64,000 nt of DNA from Arenicellales bacterium (lineage in GTDB: Bacteria; Pseudomonadota; Gammaproteobacteria; BMS3Bbin11). The stretch lies in the NCBI GenBank assembly GCA_029287915.1, contig JARFQE010000029.1, forward strand, positions 7,245-71,244. Reading direction: 5' to 3'. Of this stretch, positions 40,428 to 50,980 are shown in pieces; position 1 is the first letter of the stretch; each line of letters starts with the position of its first letter. Below the pieces are notes generated by a model, which was not told where the DNA came from, made no database searches, and saw only the letters and a list, made by a program, of their open reading frames with translations. The translations under genes were made by a program, and so were the position numbers.

Positions 40428-42515
40428 ATGGCAGAACAAAGTAAGTTAGCGGGTGAAAATGTGACAGATGCAGGTGTAGTTGATATTGTTCCTGATAAGG
40501 GTTCTCCTCCATCAGGTAAGGGAAAGTCAGCTCCATCTGCATTAGGTAAATTGGCAAACAATCTACCACTGCTAGGTATTGGCATGGTGATTTCTGTTAT
40601 CGGGCTGATTGCTGTGCTTATGTGGCAAACAAGGACAACGGCCCTGCAGTCAGGCTATGTTGAAGAATCAAGCCTGCTGCTTATGTTGTCGCAGAGGGTT
40701 GCTAAAGATGCGCGTGAGGCTGTATTGGGTAGTGAAGATGCGTTTGCCTCACTGCAGGATTCAAAAAACAGAATCAATACTATTCTAAATACCCTGGTTG
40801 AAGGTAATGACAGGCTGCCTGCTTCTCCTGAGACTGTAAACGATACACTACAACCGGTGCTAACGCTCTGGGAATCACTTGATCAGGATGTTGCTGCTAT
40901 TCTGACCAATAAACCGGCACTGCTTTCTATTCGTGAGAATGTGGCTTCTATAAATCAGCTGTCACCGATGCTTCTGGCAACCTCGGATGAGGTGGTTGAA
41001 GCCCTGATTTCCGAGGGTGCATCTCAGGATGTTGTTGCCCGAGCAGGTACACAGCGCACCTGGAGTCAGCGAATTACCAAAGATGTAAACGTGTTTGCAC
41101 TTGGCGGTTTAGATTCAGCTGTTGCGGCAACTCAGTTTGGTAAAGATGCCAAACTATTCCAACGTATTAACCGTAGTTTACGCAGAGACGCAAGCCCTGA
41201 AGTCATTGAAAAAATCGATGCATCTGATGAGATTTTCAAGCAGTTGAATGAGTACATCCAGGCTGCACAACAAGTTGTAACTGAGTTCTTCGTTTCACAG
41301 CGTTCTGCTCAACGTATTACTGAAAATTCAGAGAAATTTCTGGCTGACGCTGAGGCTCTGGTAGGCAGCTATCAGGGTCTGTACTCTGACATTAAGTACC
41401 TAAAGTTTCTACCCTTTGTCCTCGGTGGTGCTGCATTGTTGTTCTTTTTGATGTTCATTCGTTCGCTGGTAGGTAGTGCGCGCGAGCGAGAGTTTGAAAG
41501 TAACGAAAAAAACAGAGAGACGCAGGCGGCTATTCTGAAGCTTCTTGATGAAATGGGCGATCTTGCTGATGGTGACCTTACCATCGAAGCGGAAGTGACC
41601 GACCAGGTGACAGGTGCTATCGCTGACTCCATGAACTACGCGGTGCTGGAAATGCGCACCCTGGTAAGACAGATTAATAATGCATCTGATCAGGTAGCAA
41701 CGGAGTCTGAAGGTACCCGTGATAAAACTTCGGCATTGCTGGCGCAGTCAGGCCAACAATCTGATGAGATTAGTACAGCAACTGAGGCAATTTCAACTAT
41801 GGCCCAGTCAATGGAGCAGCTTTCTGAAAGTGCTGATGGATCTGCTGAAGTTGCGAATGGTTCGGTAGAACTGGCCAAGCAGGGTGCTGAAGCGGTGTCG
41901 TCCACCATCAAGGGCATGAATAATATGCGTGACAAGATGCAGGAGACGGGTAAACGAATCAAACGTCTTGGTGAAAGTTCGCAACAGATTGGTGAAATTG
42001 TTGGATTGATTGATGATATCGCTGAGCAAACCAATATCCTGTCATTGAATGCCTCAATTCAGGCGGCGATGGCTGGTGAGGCAGGCCGTGGCTTCGCGGT
42101 CGTTGCTGACGAAGTCCAGCGACTGGCTGAACGTTCTGCTGAAGCAACAAAACAGATTGCTGATCTGGTCAGTAATATTCAGGCAGATACCAATGAAGCG
42201 GTAAGTTCGATGGAAGTAGCAACACGTGAAGTTGTGGAGAATACTCGACTTGCTGATGAGGCCGGTCGTGCACTGGGTGAGATTGAGACAGTATCGGAAG
42301 AGCTTTCCACCCTGATTTCTGCTATGGCCAATACGGCACGGCAGCAGTCCGAGGAGGCGACTGGTGTATCCGGCACTATGGTGCACATTAGAGAACTTTC
42401 AAGCCAGGTGTCATCAACGACGAGTGAGACTGCTGAGTCAGTAGGCAGGTTGTCAGTTCTTGCCGGGCAGCTTAAATCTTCTGTAGCTGGGTTCAGACTG
42501 CCATCAGAATCTTAA
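40428..42515 (+). CDS. pilJ: Methyl-accepting chemotaxis protein PilJ
   Basis: Two TMs, [57 protein letters not shown]. Confidence 0.93.
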
Positions 42516-42782: not shown

Positions 42783-45700
42783 ATGAGTCGAGTAGACCCC
42801 AGTACATTTAGTTGGGTTAAAGATGAGATAGATGAGTCAATCAAGCAGGCTCGATTATCGTTAGAAGCCTATTCCAGCTCAACTGATGACTCCAGCCAGA
42901 TGCGTATGGCTGTTGCTTTTCTCCATCAGGTTTCAGGTACTCTACAAATAGTAGAACTTGATGGTGCAGCAAGGCTTGTTAATGAACTGGAGTTGGTTTG
43001 CGAGGGGTTAATAGATGAAAGCATCCAGGCAACAGAAGAGATTCTGGATTCACTAAGCCGTGGAGTGCTGAGCCTTAGCACCTATGTCTCTCAGTTGCAT
43101 GCCGGATATCCGGATTCCATTGTCGCGCTGACGCCGCTGATTAACGAACTGCGTACTGCACGAGGTGCTGATCTCGTTGATGAGTATGAATTGTTTAATC
43201 CAGAACTTGATATTTATCCGGAATTCAAAGGTGATAGGCCTGCCCGTTTAAGTGATGATGATTTCAAAGCTGAAGCTATTCAGGCACGTAATCAGTTGCT
43301 TGCTACAATGGTAAGCTGGTTTGCCCAAAAAGATGAAGCACAATCTCTTAGCACCATTCTTCTTTTATTTACACATCTTAAGAACATCTCCCGTTTCGAT
43401 GTCACTTCCCAGTTATGGTGGGTAGCAACTGCCCTGACTGAAGCTTTGCGAGATGGTGGATTAAATAGTACAGATAAGGAAACAAGACGTTTTTTTGCAA
43501 CACTGGAACAGGAGCTGAAACGTATTATAGAGAAAGGCGAGTCTGCACTAGTCAAGTCGCCACATGAATCTCTATTGAAAAGAATGCTTTTTAAAATAGG
43601 AAAGGCAGAAAGTCATGGCCCAGTGGTAACTGAACTGGTGAATGCTTTTGCACTTGATGAGCAGATCAGTGGCAAGCCATCGGGAGATGTAGTCGAAATC
43701 TTTGAGGCCACCAGTCCTGAAGTTTTGCAACCCATCATGAAGGCCCTGGCAGAGGAGCTCTCAGGTGCCCAGGATCATCTCAATGATTATTTTGAGAGTA
43801 ACGATCCCGCTACTAAATCGATAGAGCCTTTGCTTTCCAGTTTAGATAAGACTCGTGGTGCTGTCGACGTCATCAATAAGAATAAACTACGGGACCTGGT
43901 CGAAGAAATCTCCAACGCAGCACAGGCCTATGACGCTGGCAACCTGGTAATCAACAATAATGTTGCTCTTAATCTCGCTGAAGGACTGCTGACACTGGAA
44001 AACGCATGCAATGAACTTGATGATCCTGCTTCTGACTGGGAAGAGAAGGTGGATCGCGCAATATCTGATTTGTATTGGATCAGAACAGGTGAACAGCCCA
44101 ATATTGCTGCTACATCTGCTGTCGATGGTATAGACATTGATGAAGAGGGCACATTAACTGATGTTGAATTTTCTCAACTTGTTAAGGTTGTCGCCAGCGA
44201 AATCGCTACTAACCTTGTTGATGTAGTTGAAAAATTCGAGAAATATTCATTAAACATGCATCTTAATGAAATTCTCAAATCCGTTCCGGAAAAATTACAT
44301 CAGATAGAAGGTGCGCTGCAGATTCTGGAACGTGAGCGCGCAATTGAACTTGTTTTACTGATAAGTGAACAAGTTGCTAGCATGGCTGAAGGGCGTATCA
44401 AGCCATCAACAGAACATGTCGAATCTACTGCGCTTGCTATCAGTGCAATAGAGTCCTATGCAGAAGCACTGCAACATGATCAATCAACGAGTGAACTGGT
44501 CATTGAGCGTGCAATGGAGGAGCTACTACGTACAGCTCCTTCAGACATTTCAGACCGGCCGACGGCTTTGGCGCGTGTCAGGCATATTCGTAGCGAAGCT
44601 GATAAATGGTTACGCAATCCGGAGGATGAGCTTTTTCTTGCTACGCTGCGCAAAGACATGGCAGCTATTGTTGCCTTAGCTAAAATTAACAAGGATGCCA
44701 AGCTCGAGAAGATCGCTGACGAAGTTTCAAATCTGGTTAATATGTTATCAGATGATCCGGAGTATCTGACTGATGACGTCATGAGCACTTTCCATAAGTC
44801 ATTATTGATACTCGAAAGTCTAACCATTAAATTACCTGCGGAAGCATCGCTGGCAGAAAAGGCAGATAATTTAGAGGTTGAACTTGACGCTGTAGAAACT
44901 CCATCCATTGATAGTGGTCTTGGTATTGAACTGGAAGAACTCATCGAGCCTGAAAAAGATTCTGGTGCTACTTTAGAAGATAGTATTGTCGAGGATGAAT
45001 TAGTTTCTGATGAACTTGAAGCAGAAGAGCCTGTAGTTAGTGAACCTGTAGTTAGTGAGGAAGAAGAAAGAAAGCCTGCGGTTTTCGATGACGAGATACT
45101 GGATATTTTTCTGGAAGAAGCAAGAGAGATAGCTAATTCGGGAAAAGATCTGTTACAAAAATGGAAGTCTGATACTGCTAATGAAGATGCGTTGGTAGAT
45201 TTACGGCGTAGCTTCCATACCTTAAAAGGCAGTGGCCGGATGTCCGGTGCTGTCGAATTTGGTGAATTCGCATGGTCGCTGGAAGAATTGTTAAACAATG
45301 TAATTGCCGGCAAGCTCGAACCGAATGACCAAATGTTTGCCTTACTTGATGAGGCACTTGGTAAATTGCCATCAATGCTTGATGATCTAGAAAGGCACGA
45401 TGAATCAAATATTGATGTTCCCTACTGGCAGACATACGTTGCCAAAGCAGGTAGTGCCGAAGATCAAGTAACAGAAATTTCAATAGACAAAGAGGAAAAA
45501 GAAGAAGGCGATTCAGAAATCGAAGAAATAGAGGCTTTACTTGATGATGAGATCGATATACACGAAGAAGATGAAGATTTGTTTGAGACGGAAGATATAT
45601 CGCCTGACGCTGAATCTGAAGAGACTGAAACCATACATGGCTTACCACCACCCCTGCAGTCGGCCGTTGTTCGTGATATTTATGCAACTGAAATAAACAA

Positions 45701-48695
45701 ACATCTTGATGATCTGTTAATTGAGCTGAATAAAAGTCGCGATCATCAGGAACCAGAAGTCACAGAAGTGATGCACAGGCTGATTCATACACTTCGTGGG
45801 AGTGCTCGATCAGTGGGTTTTGATTTGGTCGCTGATACCTATGAATCTGTAGAAAATTTACTAGATGGACTGAGTGCAAGAAGCCTTGATCTAACGAAGG
45901 AAGATATTGATATTATTCAAATAGCCCATGACCTGGGCATGCAGCTGCTTGAATCAGTACGGCAGCCGCATGCACTGGAAGATCATTTACTTGCAGGCAT
46001 GGGTGAACTCTCAGCTATTTGTAATAAACGACTTGTTAACCTGCCTAATCCACAGATGCATGATGGCACAATCGAGATGCCACGTTATCTCAGTGTGGAA
46101 GAAATAGCGGAGATAACTAAATCTGCAGAGTCAGCACAAGAACAGGTGGCTGAAGTCATTGACGAAGAAGTTGCTGAGGAAGTTGTCGAGGAAGTTGCCG
46201 AGGAAGTCGCTGAGGAAGTTGCCGAGGAAGAACCGCTTGATGAGCTGGTCGAAATCTTTCGTGAAGAAGCTGAAGATTTATTGTCACGCTTCCATGAGAC
46301 ACTGGATAACTGGCGCAACGACCCGGGCAATACTGAAGCCAGCAGTGAATTAAAACGTATCTTTCATACCATCAAAGGCAGCGCCAGGATGACCGGGATC
46401 AGCAAAATCGGTGACCTGGCCCACAATACTGAATCGATACTTGAGCAGGCGGAGCGTGCAGACAATAACATCGATGAGTCCTTATTTGAGCTGATTGAGG
46501 AAGTGCATGACACCCTGCAAATGATGGTCGAGAATCCCGCCAGCAGTAAATTTGATAACCAGGCAGTTGAAATGAATCAACGTGTGCTGAACCATTTCTC
46601 CACGGCTCAGGATGAGCAGGCCGAGGAAGTTGTCACAGAGTCAGAAGTACCAGCTGTCGGTACAGCAGATGAGCTTGCACAGATAGATGAGGATGCAGTG
46701 GAAGAGGTTTCAGCTGCACTGATTGAAGCTGAGGAATATACAAAAGAAAAGGTAGCCAGCACGGCAGAAGCTAAATCCGAAACAGCACTTGCAACAGAGA
46801 AGAAAAGTGCTGTACCTGTGGTGGAGATTAAGAAAACTGGTGCTGCCAAACAGACATTGGTCAGGGTAGATTCGAAATTACTGGGAACACTGGCTAACTA
46901 TGCTGGTGAAGTAAGTATCGCACGATCACGGATTCAACAGCAGGTTTCGAACTTCAAGGAAAATCTATCTGAGTTACATAACAATATTGAGCGATTTCAT
47001 ACACAGATACGTGAGCTCGAAATTCAGGCCGATAGTCAAATTCTGTCTGGCACTGGAGCTACCTTTAATGAGAATGATGAAGACTTTGATCCTCTTGAAT
47101 TTGACCGCTATACGCAATTACAGTTTCTGTCCAGAAACCTGGCCGAGTCTCTGAATGATCTAGTGATGATCCAGACAGGAATGGACAACTTTGCCGGTGA
47201 TGTCGAGATGTTGCTTCATGAACAATCTCGCTTGAATACTGATCTGCAGGAAGGCTTGACCCAGACAAGGATGGTAGCATTCTCGACCCTGATGCCAAGA
47301 CTAAGGCAACTGACAAGAAAAACATCACGTGAATTGTCCAAGCCAGTTGACCTTGAGCTAGAAGGTGGAGAAGTAGAGCTGGATAGAAATGTGATTGATC
47401 AGGTTGTTCCTCCATTGGAACATCTGATTCGAAACTCAATTTCTCATGGTATCGAAAGTGCTAGCGATAGAGAGAAGCAGGGCAAATCAAAAAAGGGTCT
47501 GCTGAAGCTTGATATCACTCGCGAAGGTAAAGACATTATTATAGGTTTTTCTGATGATGGCCGGGGCCTGGATCTAGAAAAAATTCGTAGCAAGGCTGAA
47601 CAGAGGGGTCTAATTGACCGAGGAATGAATCCTTCAGATGATCATCTGGCCAATCTTATTTTTGTGCCAGGATTTTCAACTGCTGACAGTATTACCCAGG
47701 TTTCAGGTCGAGGGGTAGGCATGGATGTGGTTCAAAGTGAGCTCAAGCAAGTCGGTGGATCTGTTTCTCTAACTACTGAAAAAAACAACGGAACACGTTT
47801 TAGTATCAGATTGCCATTATCAATGACAGTTGCCCAGGCAATGATTATTGCTTCGGGTGGACAACGCTTTGCAGTGCCATTAATGTCAATAATGTCCATC
47901 ACTATAGTCCTTAGAAGTAGAATTGTTACTGACTCGGACGGTGAGCGAAGCGTCTCAATTGGTGATAACACCTATCCATACATCTCGCTGGCTGAGCGGC
48001 TTGGTCTGCTGTCGCAACTGGAAGATGATAATAAAACGCCTGCTTTAATAATGAATTCTGCCACCGGTCCTATAGTGGTAGGTGTAGATGAGCTAATCCA
48101 TGCTACTGAAATCGTTGTCAAGCCTGTTGGTATTCAAGTTGCGTCTCTTGATGGTATTGAAGGGGCAACGGTAATGAGTAATGGTGACGTTGCTCTTATT
48201 CTTGACATGGTTGATTTATGGAATACCCGCCATATAGAGAGGGAAGAGATTGATCAGAGCAGCCTGGTAGCCAAACTTGAAGAAGAAATCAGCCCGGCAA
48301 CAATAATGGTTGTAGATGATTCATTGACGGTTCGACGTGTAACAGAGCGAAACCTGAGTAAGTATGGTATCACCACATTACTGGCATCTGATGGTGTAGA
48401 TGCAATGGAAAAGCTATCAGATGAGATACCTGATGCTATGCTCGTTGATATTGAAATGCCGCGAATGGACGGTTTTGAGCTAACTGAACGCGTTAGAGAC
48501 GACCCCGCCTACAAAGATATTCCTATAATCATAATTACTTCACGTTCTGGTCCTAAGCATCGTGAAAGAGCAATGGCGCTTGGAGCAACACTTTATTTGA
48601 CCAAACCATATCAGGAGCTGGAATTAATGAACGCTATCAATTCGGTGCTGCCGCTAGAAAGCTCTCGCAAGATAAGCGCAATGATGAAGGCCTGA
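42783..48695 (+). CDS. chpA: Chemosensory histidine kinase ChpA (multi-Hpt, HATPase, CheW, receiver)
   Basis: Multiple Hpt motifs (HQVSG, HQIEG, HTLKG, HTLRG, HTIKG), EHLIRNSISHGIE, DDGRG, SGRGVGMD, C-terminal receiver VDIEMP. Confidence 0.95.
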   Translation: MSRVDPSTFSWVKDEIDESIKQARLSLEAYSSSTDDSSQMRMAVAFLHQVSGTLQIVELDGAARLVNELELVCEGLIDESIQATEEILDSLSRGVLSLSTYVSQLHAGYPDSIVALTPLINELRTARGADLVDEYELFNPELDIYPEFKGDRPARLSDDDFKAEAIQARNQLLATMVSWFAQKDEAQSLSTILLLFTHLKNISRFDVTSQLWWVATALTEALRDGGLNSTDKETRRFFATLEQELKRIIEKGESALVKSPHESLLKRMLFKIGKAESHGPVVTELVNAFALDEQISGKPSGDVVEIFEATSPEVLQPIMKALAEELSGAQDHLNDYFESNDPATKSIEPLLSSLDKTRGAVDVINKNKLRDLVEEISNAAQAYDAGNLVINNNVALNLAEGLLTLENACNELDDPASDWEEKVDRAISDLYWIRTGEQPNIAATSAVDGIDIDEEGTLTDVEFSQLVKVVASEIATNLVDVVEKFEKYSLNMHLNEILKSVPEKLHQIEGALQILERERAIELVLLISEQVASMAEGRIKPSTEHVESTALAISAIESYAEALQHDQSTSELVIERAMEELLRTAPSDISDRPTALARVRHIRSEADKWLRNPEDELFLATLRKDMAAIVALAKINKDAKLEKIADEVSNLVNMLSDDPEYLTDDVMSTFHKSLLILESLTIKLPAEASLAEKADNLEVELDAVETPSIDSGLGIELEELIEPEKDSGATLEDSIVEDELVSDELEAEEPVVSEPVVSEEEERKPAVFDDEILDIFLEEAREIANSGKDLLQKWKSDTANEDALVDLRRSFHTLKGSGRMSGAVEFGEFAWSLEELLNNVIAGKLEPNDQMFALLDEALGKLPSMLDDLERHDESNIDVPYWQTYVAKAGSAEDQVTEISIDKEEKEEGDSEIEEIEALLDDEIDIHEEDEDLFETEDISPDAESEETETIHGLPPPLQSAVVRDIYATEINKHLDDLLIELNKSRDHQEPEVTEVMHRLIHTLRGSARSVGFDLVADTYESVENLLDGLSARSLDLTKEDIDIIQIAHDLGMQLLESVRQPHALEDHLLAGMGELSAICNKRLVNLPNPQMHDGTIEMPRYLSVEEIAEITKSAESAQEQVAEVIDEEVAEEVVEEVAEEVAEEVAEEEPLDELVEIFREEAEDLLSRFHETLDNWRNDPGNTEASSELKRIFHTIKGSARMTGISKIGDLAHNTESILEQAERADNNIDESLFELIEEVHDTLQMMVENPASSKFDNQAVEMNQRVLNHFSTAQDEQAEEVVTESEVPAVGTADELAQIDEDAVEEVSAALIEAEEYTKEKVASTAEAKSETALATEKKSAVPVVEIKKTGAAKQTLVRVDSKLLGTLANYAGEVSIARSRIQQQVSNFKENLSELHNNIERFHTQIRELEIQADSQILSGTGATFNENDEDFDPLEFDRYTQLQFLSRNLAESLNDLVMIQTGMDNFAGDVEMLLHEQSRLNTDLQEGLTQTRMVAFSTLMPRLRQLTRKTSRELSKPVDLELEGGEVELDRNVIDQVVPPLEHLIRNSISHGIESASDREKQGKSKKGLLKLDITREGKDIIIGFSDDGRGLDLEKIRSKAEQRGLIDRGMNPSDDHLANLIFVPGFSTADSITQVSGRGVGMDVVQSELKQVGGSVSLTTEKNNGTRFSIRLPLSMTVAQAMIIASGGQRFAVPLMSIMSITIVLRSRIVTDSDGERSVSIGDNTYPYISLAERLGLLSQLEDDNKTPALIMNSATGPIVVGVDELIHATEIVVKPVGIQVASLDGIEGATVMSNGDVALILDMVDLWNTRHIEREEIDQSSLVAKLEEEISPATIMVVDDSLTVRRVTERNLSKYGITTLLASDGVDAMEKLSDEIPDAMLVDIEMPRMDGFELTERVRDDPAYKDIPIIIITSRSGPKHRERAMALGATLYLTKPYQELELMNAINSVLPLESSRKISAMMKA
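45027..45056 (+). repeat. 15-nt tandem duplication in chpA linker (EPVVS x2)
   Basis: GAGCCTGTAGTTAGT GAACCTGTAGTTAGT. Confidence 0.9.
46164..46223 (+). repeat. 12-nt tandem repeat x5 in chpA linker (EEVA-like)
   Basis: GAAGAAGTTGCT GAGGAAGTTGTC GAGGAAGTTGCC GAGGAAGTCGCT GAGGAAGTTGCC. Confidence 0.92.
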
Positions 48696-48721: not shown

Positions 48722-49165
48722 ATGGTAGAAAAAACATTACAGCCGGTACGTTGTCTAGTTGTGCCGGCAGAACACGGTTTTCTGGTTATACCCAGTGCTG
48801 CAGTAGCAGAAATTGTTCCACTGTCGCTCAATGAGGGTGAGGCTGAAGGCGATTTGCTCGGGCATATGCCCTGGCGCGGCATTCAGGTTCCTGTATATTC
48901 TATGGAAGGGCTCTCGGGTCTCAATACACCGGATTTTAGCAAGCGCAGTAAGGCGTTAATTTTCTATCCATGGAAAGGGGCGGATAAAAATATGTTTTTT
49001 GCTATTGCAACATTGCATGACCCACGCCCCAGGTTGCTATCAAGTAATGATATTCAGGCAAGTGATGATGATCAGGCAGAAAGTGAATTTATTAGTGCAA
49101 GCTTTCTTTATGACGGTGAGCTTGCTTTCATCCCTGACCTTCAGGCAATCTCCCAACAGCTTTAA
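48722..49165 (+). CDS. chpC: CheW-like protein ChpC
   Basis: L.IPSAAVAEIV, LLG...WRG..VPV.S.E; follows chpA. Confidence 0.8.
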   Translation: MVEKTLQPVRCLVVPAEHGFLVIPSAAVAEIVPLSLNEGEAEGDLLGHMPWRGIQVPVYSMEGLSGLNTPDFSKRSKALIFYPWKGADKNMFFAIATLHDPRPRLLSSNDIQASDDDQAESEFISASFLYDGELAFIPDLQAISQQL

Positions 49166-49299
49166 CCCGCCCATTCTGTGCTGCTTGTTATGAGCACTCG
49201 CGGGTGTTGTTGATACTGTCGATACCCCACAGTGCAATCTAATGCATTGAGCTTAATTGTCTTTTCTTATTGTCCAGTACGACAGAAGGTAGCGGTTCA

Positions 49300-49649
49300 A
49301 GGATGTTACCGAGGAAGAGCCGCTCGATGAACTGGTCGATATCTTTCGTGAAGAAGCTGAAGATTGATTGTCACGCTTCCATAAGACACTGGACAACTGG
49401 CGCAATGATCCGGGGAAGACTGCAGCCAGCAGTGAATTAAAACGTATCTTTCATACCATCAAAGGCAGCGCCAGGGTGAGCGGGATCAGGCAAATCGGTG
49501 GACCTTGCCCACCATACTGAATCGATACTTGAGTAGGCGGAGCGTGCAGACAATAGTCTAGAATCCTGCCAGCAGTAAATTTGATAGCCAGGCAGTTGAA
49601 ATGAATCAGCATGTGCTGAAGCATTTCTCCACGGCACAGAATGAGCAGG
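49300..49649 (+). pseudogene. Degenerate duplicate of the last chpA Hpt domain (chpA 46213-46620)
   Basis: Hand alignment: about 29 substitutions in about 349 nt, stops at 49365, 49534 and 49559, a +1 G at about 49500, and a 59-nt deletion relative to chpA 46468-46526. Confidence 0.92.
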
Positions 49650-49931
49650 TTGCGGCAGTAGCCGAGGTAGTCGCCGAGAAAATCAACGAATACGGTAATC
49701 GCCTGAGTCTCGCACTACCGTAGTTCGTCCTTTCCTGGTTTGGTTCGTAATGCGTGCCAGATCCTGCTGCACCTTCTTAATGAACGCTGTGTGCTTCACA
49801 GTTTAGATATGTCGGGATACTTTGTAACAAAACAGGGAAGGAACATACGAGGAAGAGTTAGATAATTCTGTTCCATCGACAGTAATAAAAAACAAAATGG
49901 TCATACCCAGGATTACTTGGAATCCATTAAC

Positions 49932-49964
49932 AAAAAAAACCCCATAAGGATAATCCTTATGGGG
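49932..49964 (-). terminator. Rho-independent terminator of the PhnD-like gene
   Basis: CCCCATAAGG/CCTTATGGGG stem followed by U8 on the minus strand. Confidence 0.85.
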
Positions 49965-50095
49965 TGTTTAATGGAATGGATCACTTATTATCCATTCTTT
50001 TCAGCTACCCTCTTTATAGTTATTACCCCCCCCTGGAATAATAGTTTCTTTGTTATTAAAAAATCTTTTTTTTTCGATTTTTCAAGGTTCTGTAA

Positions 50096-50980
50096 TCAAT
50101 CGTTTACTACAACCTGTATATTTAAAAAGTCATCAAGGAGTTTGGCATAGCCAAAAAAATCTTTATTACTTGTCTTTTCAAATGGGTTCAGCTTCGTCTC
50201 GCTGAGCATCTTTTTGCCTTCCGGGGTCTTGTCTGCTTCGAGTAGACCCTTAACAAGCTTTTCCCTGATATCAGCGGTAACATTGGGCGATACTGACATA
50301 CCCATGCTGGGTATTGGTTCAGTTGTTGTGACAACTGAAATGCCACCTTCGTTAGCCATTATTCCACTGACCAGTGGTGTTGGAATCATGCCGGCATCAA
50401 CATTTCCATCACGCAACATTTTTATAACGCCCTGAGAATTATTGGCTTCTACAATGGTAGGCTGGCGTACTGGGTTGTTATACATCTCATCGATGTTGAC
50501 AGCTGCAACGCTTGGTGGGCCGAGTGTCGATATTTTCTTTCCTATTAATTCTTCAGGTTCGAACACCAGGGCATCTTCTGAAACAATTAGAGAGATACTG
50601 ACGCTGCCAGGTTGCTTGGCAAATGTCGTGAAATCGTGGTTCTTGTTGCGATAGTCGATAAAGTGTGCGGCATCGAAAACAATATCATATTTGTCGCCTT
50701 TCTGAGTATCAGTCCAGAACGAGAGGAAATTTGGATAGGTCACAAGTTCTACCTTCCGTCCCGTCAGATGCTCAATATAATCCGCCATGGGTTGAAATAT
50801 TTCTCGCGTCCGTTGTTCTGACTGAATTGGTTGAATGCTCAACCTCAGGGTTTCCTGTGCAAATGCAGCTTTAGGTAGTAAAGTTACAAAGGCTATAGTG
50901 ATAGAGAAGGCGACAATCAGCAGAATATTACTAACTTCTGAAGCCTTCCGTGACATGGTGTTAATGGTTAAGTTAAACAT
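50096..50980 (-). CDS. Phosphate/phosphite/phosphonate-type periplasmic binding protein (PhnD-like), stand-alone
   Basis: Signal peptide, LSIQP.QS...T...FQP..DY, L.GKKI.T, D...DAG, SMG.SV.P.V...IRE.L...LL. Start may be MSRKAS. Confidence 0.7.
   Translation of the reverse strand: MFNLTINTMSRKASEVSNILLIVAFSITIAFVTLLPKAAFAQETLRLSIQPIQSEQRTREIFQPMADYIEHLTGRKVELVTYPNFLSFWTDTQKGDKYDIVFDAAHFIDYRNKNHDFTTFAKQPGSVSISLIVSEDALVFEPEELIGKKISTLGPPSVAAVNIDEMYNNPVRQPTIVEANNSQGVIKMLRDGNVDAGMIPTPLVSGIMANEGGISVVTTTEPIPSMGMSVSPNVTADIREKLVKGLLEADKTPEGKKMLSETKLNPFEKTSNKDFFGYAKLLDDFLNIQVVVND

Follow-up and report, generated by a model that had tools for sequence, protein, structure and literature searches.

A decayed ectopic copy of the last ChpA Hpt module in uncultured Arenicellales, with a probable history of single insertion, gene conversion and neutral decay

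In the window, which is the whole stretch of 64,000 nucleotides analysed here, the segment at 49299-49694 is very probably a non-functional pseudogene fragment that arose when a single module of chpA was copied, passed through a phase of gene conversion and then decayed neutrally. The relatives show all stages of such a history, namely an empty site, an intact near-parental copy for which conversion is the best explanation, and a neutrally decaying relic.

Results

The Pil-Chp cluster of the window, recognised from the ORF list and Pfam matches, consists of pilG (39022), pilH, pilI, pilJ (40428-42515), chpA and chpC. The parent gene, chpA (42783-48695, plus strand), encodes a Tfp-class CheA of 1970 aa with Pfam matches to Hpt, H-kinase_dim, HATPase_c, CheW and Response_reg. 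The parent module, delimited by alignment at 46213-46634 on the plus strand, comprises the last EEVA unit, the last Hpt domain, whose best Pfam stretch covers ChpA residues 1154-1245, and a trailing AEEVV motif; its phospho-His codon lies at 46365-46367. Just 5' of this Hpt, at 46164-46223 (plus strand), the repeat finder detected an array of the 12-nt unit GAGGAAGTTGCY (family D2), which encodes (EEVA)n, and on the 3' side the parent segment has a single EEVA-type motif, GCCGAGGAAGTTGTC, at 46620-46634. The array counts 5 units in the window and 6, 7 or 12 in independent contigs from other strains of the same species, which results in ChpA lengths of 1970, 1974, 1978 and 1998 aa; these lengths come from short-read assemblies and should be taken with some caution. 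Tandem duplicates of the same last Hpt were found in chpA of two congeneric species, G007 and G008. The proposal of the preliminary description that Hpt number varies in ChpA is borne out by these duplicates.

The same ChpA linker is built in congeners from quite different repeat units, for example EEPAREEIAEEVVT and AEAVEEEQAEEV. The two tandem copies of last-Hpt type are located in each chpA of G007 (L019 1134-2021) and G008 (L021, reverse strand), and those of G007 group together (91/93), as is expected from species-specific duplication or concerted evolution. In a more distant relative (L115 3823-4080, JGI 3300041074), gene calling splits chpA into three ORFs, with an interruption within the Hpt (…EEVHDRKCMTPC) that may reflect either a frameshift or the misassembly of tandem Hpt repeats.

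The ectopic copy is positioned 3.1 kb downstream of its parent, beyond chpC and in direct orientation. Its limits, 49299-49694 on the plus strand, were determined by alignment to the parent and from the empty site of lineage D, and are slightly wider than the 49300-49680 given before. The inserted module is composed of a remnant of a 5' EEVA unit (49299-49320), the Hpt body, and a 3' EEVA-like remnant with 15 further nt (49650-49694). The 3' end of the copy, GTTGCGGCAGTAGCCGAGGTAGTCGCCGAG (49650-49679), is EEVA-like and is missing from the present chpA after its Hpt. At 49695-49723 (plus strand), as judged from the alignment and the lineage D empty site, the frame of the module enters the original spacer and ends at a TAG (49721-49723), the equivalent of which closes an intact frame of 155 codons in lineage E. 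Using MAFFT and repeat finding, window 49300-49649 was aligned with chpA 46213-46620. The core of this alignment (46222-46620 against 49309-49649) contains 313 matches and 27 substitutions, which corresponds to 92.1% identity, and a second alignment of parent and copy gave 29 substitutions, with 12 synonymous and 14 non-synonymous changes (NG86). A search of the own genome returned only these two copies, parent and ectopic, and no third.

Five lesions break the frame of the window copy, all of them located by alignment on the plus strand. A TGA stop at 49365-49367 (TTA in the parent) is common to clades A and B of the species, and the same is true of the 59-nt deletion at 49555-49556 (parent 46469-46527), which takes out part of the helices and is absent in lineages C and E. 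An extra G at 49500-49501, causing a +1 frameshift, and two TAG codons, at 49534-49536 (CAG in the parent) and 49559-49561 (GAG in the parent), are restricted to the clade of the window; the clade B copy has a different extra G, after 49473. An in-frame stop also lies at the left edge of the copy, and a start codon is lacking. The FHTIKGSA codons are kept (49449-49472, plus strand), with the His codon at 49452-49454. As a coding sequence for an Hpt domain (Pfam PF01627) the window copy fails, whereas the parent and the intact ORF of lineage E are both recognised as Pfam Hpt. The features of a duplicated pseudogene fragment, namely homology within the same genome combined with lesions, neutrality and a derived insertion, are all present. 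Every factual statement made earlier on this copy of the last Hpt (decayed, repeat-bounded, about 92% identical, with three stops, a +1 frameshift, a 59-nt deletion and retained FHTIKGSA codons) holds in the formal alignment.

Public gene calls at 49601-49723 contain an ORF of 40 aa (59 aa in clade B). These calls are an annotation artefact: they cover the 3' part of the dead module, read out of frame, and its continuation into the spacer.

The copy is situated in the 930-nt spacer between chpC (48722-49165, plus strand), which is the last gene of the pil-chp cluster and encodes a CheW-like protein of 147 aa (Pfam CheW), and a minus-strand gene for a phosphonate-binding-protein-like (phnD-like) product at 50096-50980, followed by a transketolase gene. 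The identical ChpC protein occurs on at least 24 contigs. Right after the chpC stop, hairpins at 49165-49225 (plus strand; RNA fold -18.4 kcal/mol, z -2.2) precede a U-rich run and form a candidate weak terminator upstream of the copy. The sequence of these hairpins is conserved across lineages A-E, and judging from this structure the putative terminator may end transcription of the operon before the Hpt copy. The far end of the spacer is occupied by the intrinsic terminator of the phnD-like gene (49939-49965, minus strand), identified by the terminator scan, with a palindrome that is kept in relatives G001 and G009. The Rfam scan of the spacer gave matches only below the gathering threshold, all of them on the phnD terminator, and the promoter scan of the spacer performed no better than on shuffled sequence.

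Several further observations concern the phnD-like side of the spacer. The palindromic terminator region (49927-50016, stem 49939-49965) is strong and about 75% conserved in G001 and G009, and the sub-threshold Rfam matches on it (PyrR, trpB motif) look like generic terminator matches. The phnD-like gene itself (window 50096-50980 against L025 5374-6258) has a dS of 0.005 between clades A and B, compared with 0.02-0.06 in chpA, chpC, tkt and the adjoining spacer, and this low value suggests a recent recombination or sweep patch over the gene. In some congeners a second phosphonate-binding-protein paralogue is inserted between chpC and the phnD-like gene (L015 5631-6593, L016 5509-6438, L018 3146-4072, L019 4573-5583); it is 40-46% identical to the 50096-50980 gene, occupies the site orthologous to window 49166-50095, and has no counterpart in the window, G004, G008 or lineage D. 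A relic of this paralogue was sought in the spacer of the window and none is present, which leaves the idea of the copy as a filler at a deletion scar unsupported.

The own assembly of the window is MAG-like, with 139 contigs and a size of 2.78 Mb, and this speaks for the reading in which the copy was produced by chimeric assembly or represents a piece of a foreign allele, from another strain, that was joined in by the assembler or came by horizontal transfer. However, exact look-up of the ChpC protein led to ten independent metagenome contigs in ENA and JGI that share the gene order and the 930-nt spacer of the window. All ten contain the whole spacer and the copy with both junctions, which in practice excludes an assembly chimera. 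Identity to the window is at least 99.5% in eight of these contigs (clade A) and 98.5% in two (clade B), the two clades differing at about 45 spacer sites. Exact-pattern scans of metagenome contigs with the deletion junction and with a 36-mer common to parent and copy gave no match, and a genome-contig scan with ChpC found no relative. Moreover, the copies form one clade with their own parents (support 100/99) and do not group with other species, and lineages C and E have the same insertion site. The probability left to a chimeric or foreign origin is vanishingly small. Among the origins proposed earlier, that of a foreign allele fragment is contradicted by this clustering with the own parent, together with an insertion shared by A, B, C and E and an empty site in D, and the suspicion of artefactual junctions is dispelled by the ten contigs.

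To follow the fate of the copy within the species, parents and copies of clades A and B were compared site by site. Twelve substitutions, the TGA stop included, and the 59-nt deletion are common to both copies against both parents. The presence of this stop and of the deletion in both copies indicates that the copy was already dead before the A/B split. The A copy has 12 changes of its own, of which 11 are substitutions (two create the TAG stops) and one is the extra G, the B copy has eight (seven substitutions and its extra G), and at one additional site both copies differ; the changes specific to each parent number three. The within-genome (abab) pattern, in which parent and copy agree with each other and differ between genomes, was sought among the A/B sites and found at none, and therefore no conversion is detectable since the A/B split. 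The two copies differ from each other at 20 of 340 positions (5.9%) with an omega of 0.91. The two parents differ at 7/399 (1.75%) in the site-pattern alignment and at 6/399, with an omega of 0.12, in the second alignment, and the background dS between A and B lies in the range of 0.02-0.04 (chpA 0.040, chpC 0.031, tkt 0.021). Read from these substitutions, the evolution of the copy since the split is one of neutral drift or decay, independent in each clade.

The same comparison bears on the speculative option raised in the preliminary description, a silent donor cassette for gene conversion, which in its active form would mean that the copy here still exchanges sequence with chpA and varies the expressed Hpt. 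Conversion between parent and copy is evident in sister lineage E, and the homology of 92% is left over blocks of about 250 nt and about 105 nt, which would suit such a role. Nevertheless, the parent Hpt is invariant in clade A, the few sites at which the A and B parents differ include three where one parent matches both copies, which is the pattern of an ancestral state and not of tracts, and the absence of abab sites points the same way. No polymorphism of the parent needs the copy as donor, and 11 sequences already suggest that there are no chpA alleles with runs of copy-specific bases. Only a single cassette exists, and its stops, frameshifts and deletion would be lethal to ChpA if transferred. 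Neither cassette-derived tracts or a variable expressed gene nor several variant cassettes, as known from the pilS type, were found. An active cassette in this genome is thus very improbable. What remains of the earlier option is its conversion component, which is evident in lineage E over 320-394 nt of identity; in the window's species it fails on a copy that died before the A/B split and evolved neutrally.

The time of insertion was determined from sister lineages C, D and E, which were found through ChpC homologues of 90-95% identity. The tree of the chpA 3' part and chpC has the topology (D,(C,(E,(B,A)))), in which the D clade and the A-E group as a whole are each supported at 100/100 and the insertion-bearing clade at 92/92. 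Pairwise dS amounts to 0.16-0.20 for A-C, 0.24 for A-E and 0.33-0.6 for A-D. Lineage D (NCBI, JGI and Logan contigs L113 and L116-L127) has an empty site, with TAGTTGA (7 nt) between the equivalents of 49298 and 49695, and it is this site that sets the limits of the insertion at 49299-49694. In lineage C (L111, L112) the module is present at the same left junction, with one extra 12-nt unit, and it has neither the stop nor the deletion as far as the contig end. In lineage E (L114, L128-L133) both the left and the right junction are the same, and an intact frame of 155 codons spans the module, opening in the left flank and closing with a stop in the right one. The empty site in D and the shared junctions in C and E indicate a single insertion on the stem of A+B+C+E. 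At the same place in more distant congeners the copy was sought and is absent, the second phnD-like paralogue or a short spacer being found instead. A region search with full-length ChpA did not recover the ChpA of lineages C and E.

Lineage E, in which the parent Hpt is represented by contig L128, provides the main evidence on conversion. E copies from three different sequencing runs match the E parent without a difference over 320 nt (L114), 378 nt (L131) and 394 nt (L133), an identity of 100% that comes from short-read assemblies able to collapse near-identical repeats; beyond the identical tract, each of the three contigs passes into the tail specific to the copy. The E parent and the E copy have in common about 15 substitutions that are specific to E when set against the parent of the window, and the E copy differs from the window's parent by about 5%. 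With a dS of about 0.24 between A and E, tens of differences from the parent are expected of an unconverted copy, and none is observed in E. Ectopic gene conversion in lineage E, with tract ends varying between strains, would evidently be the simplest explanation of these identities, and its direction was, most simply, from parent to copy. Paralogues within a genome are closer to each other than orthologues are in lineage E, on short-read data, and are not in the window's species. The divergence of 8% in the A/B copy is about half of that expected of an unconverted copy since the A-E split, which indicates that conversion probably continued for a time and then stopped. In the window's species the stop can probably be placed around the time of the deletion and the stop codon. 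The C copy differs from the window's parent by 5.0% (omega 0.08), approximately what the C parent should show, and conversion in lineage C therefore seems likely from distances alone. Between the C and E copies, omega is 0.12, with 12 synonymous and 6 non-synonymous differences; with conversion, so low a value would be inherited from selected parents and is not evidence of selection on the copy.

One Logan contig of lineage E (L129 1377-2153, SRR34468997) runs from the spacer through the copy into the chpA dimerisation region and is identical to the E parent throughout. The cause is probably an assembler that switched paths at an identical repeat, and not a longer duplication. The switch confirms the existence of a long near-identical repeat, yet it warns against over-reading the value of 100%. 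The 259-codon ORF of this contig was also considered as the predicted intermediate of a tandem duplication and was rejected, as L129 shows no difference from the E parent once the repeat is entered and the other E contigs leave into the tail.

The intact state of the module in C and E raises the possibility that the fragment is the remains of a once-functional stand-alone Hpt gene, encoding a small phosphotransfer protein downstream of chpC, which is alive in C and E and was lost in the window's species. An Hpt protein of 133 aa is called within the open E frame (P0062, P0185; Pfam Hpt), in C a change of ATC to ATG creates a start at 'DMFREE', and the low omega between the C and E copies is also what such a gene would show. 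However, overwriting by selected parents is sufficient for both the low omega and the intactness, given that the E copy is identical to its parent. In lineage E the first 26 codons include no ATG, GTG or TTG, and the called TTG start would cut most of helix 1, the start differs between lineages, an in-frame stop is located directly upstream, and the conserved hairpin lies 3' of chpC. No stand-alone homologue was found outside the narrow group, and an own start with a ribosome site and a complete domain, conserved across the carriers, was not observed. A lost stand-alone gene is considered unlikely, and the intact C and E frames together with the ATG of C leave room, with modest probability, for what may once have been a functional small Hpt ORF.

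Discussion

The history that best accounts for the fragment begins with the copying of a chpA module of about 460-480 nt, which would have happened once and in direct orientation into the chpC-phnD-like spacer, in an ancestor shared by lineages A, B, C and E of an uncultured genus within the Arenicellales. The copied module would have consisted of partial EEVA repeats, the last Hpt and further EEVA repeats. The presence of EEVA-type units at both ends of the module, compared with an array only upstream in the present parent, implies a donor in which the Hpt was flanked by repeats on either side. This donor may have been a tandem-duplication intermediate of the form array-Hpt-array-Hpt, and such an arrangement, or at least tandem duplicates of the last Hpt, is present in G007 and G008; alternatively, it may have been a looped-out module, bounded by the array on the upstream side and by the EEV motif on the downstream side. 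The insertion route may have been repeat- or microhomology-mediated ectopic recombination or templated repair, as suggested by the EEVA ends and by a short likeness (AGTTG/GAG) at the target. Stretches of the empty site (GGAGGTGGTGGATATAGTTGAG) that briefly resemble the 12-nt unit, for example AGTTG and GAG, are compatible with microhomology-mediated capture and are no proof of it, the junction evidence on the mechanism being limited to 5-7 nt of resemblance. A tandem duplication of 3.1 kb followed by a deletion of 2.6 kb was rejected as unparsimonious, with the flanks 7 nt apart at the empty site. The earlier proposal of a relic of a single-Hpt duplication, both ends of which lie in 12-nt repeats of EEVA type, gains support from the ends of the module, from the length-variable array and from the history in the sister lineages.

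After insertion, the copy would have been kept parent-like for a time by ectopic gene conversion, which is apparently ongoing in lineage E and probably in C. In the ancestor of the window's species it would then have gained the TGA stop and the 59-nt deletion, escaped conversion and decayed at the neutral rate, separately in clades A and B. Its present effect in this genome is predicted to be a longer spacer, possibly a longer 3' untranslated tail of the operon, and nothing else. A more far-reaching proposal is that, in C and E, this module and the last Hpt of ChpA make up a pair of copies exchanging sequence in both directions, with the ectopic copy as a back-up or reservoir of variation for a phosphotransfer domain that is essential, or as a nascent small Hpt protein tapping the Pil-Chp phosphorelay, and that the window's species has lost it; this is considered quite improbable.

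Partial-duplicate pseudogenes and the concerted evolution of nearby duplicates are both classical phenomena, and the ectopic Hpt copy is an ordinary pseudogene fragment with a well-resolved history and no function in this genome. Its significance lies in providing a natural example of the movement of domain-sized modules in a multi-Hpt ChpA, with breakpoints in a length-variable repeat coding for acidic linkers. The copy also constitutes a small internal neutral clock for this uncultured marine Arenicellales species complex.

Like other partial-duplicate (non-processed) pseudogene fragments of bacteria, the copy is truncated, lacks an own start and promoter, carries lesions, has an omega of about 1 and is missing at the orthologous site of a sister. 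It is unlike them in that its life history can be read in relatives (empty, intact and homogenised, decayed) and in that both its ends lie in a length-variable coding repeat of 12 nt. Silent-cassette systems of gene conversion are represented by the Neisseria pilE/pilS type. The likeness to pilE/pilS consists in a promoterless partial copy near an expressed gene of a type IV pilus system and in the evidence for conversion in a relative. However, there is one cassette here and no family, purifying selection acts strongly on the target, a cytoplasmic phosphotransfer domain, chpA as expressed shows no cassette-derived variation, and the copy is dead in this genome.

Ectopic (interlocus) gene conversion that makes a gene and a nearby duplicate evolve in concert is known from the bacterial tuf genes and from the chloroplast pair of rpl23 gene and pseudogene (cf. 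PMC6620283). As in these pairs, the paralogues of lineage E are identical within a genome, the orthologues of different lineages are separated by a dS of about 0.2-0.3, and the tract ends vary between strains. The present pair differs from them in that only a domain-sized module of 0.4 kb is involved and in that conversion has stopped in the window's species.

That the number of Hpt domains varies in Tfp-class CheA kinases is well documented; it reaches up to 14, and more than half of the multi-Hpt CheAs have five or more (PMC10542144). Compared with the variation of Hpt copy number in ChpA, the present copy is unlike in being located outside the gene, with the ChpA architecture left unchanged. 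It is alike in its multi-Hpt architecture and acidic linkers, and two congeners have duplicated the same last Hpt in tandem. The copy supports the idea that repetitive linkers drive changes in Hpt copy number in Tfp-class CheA kinases.
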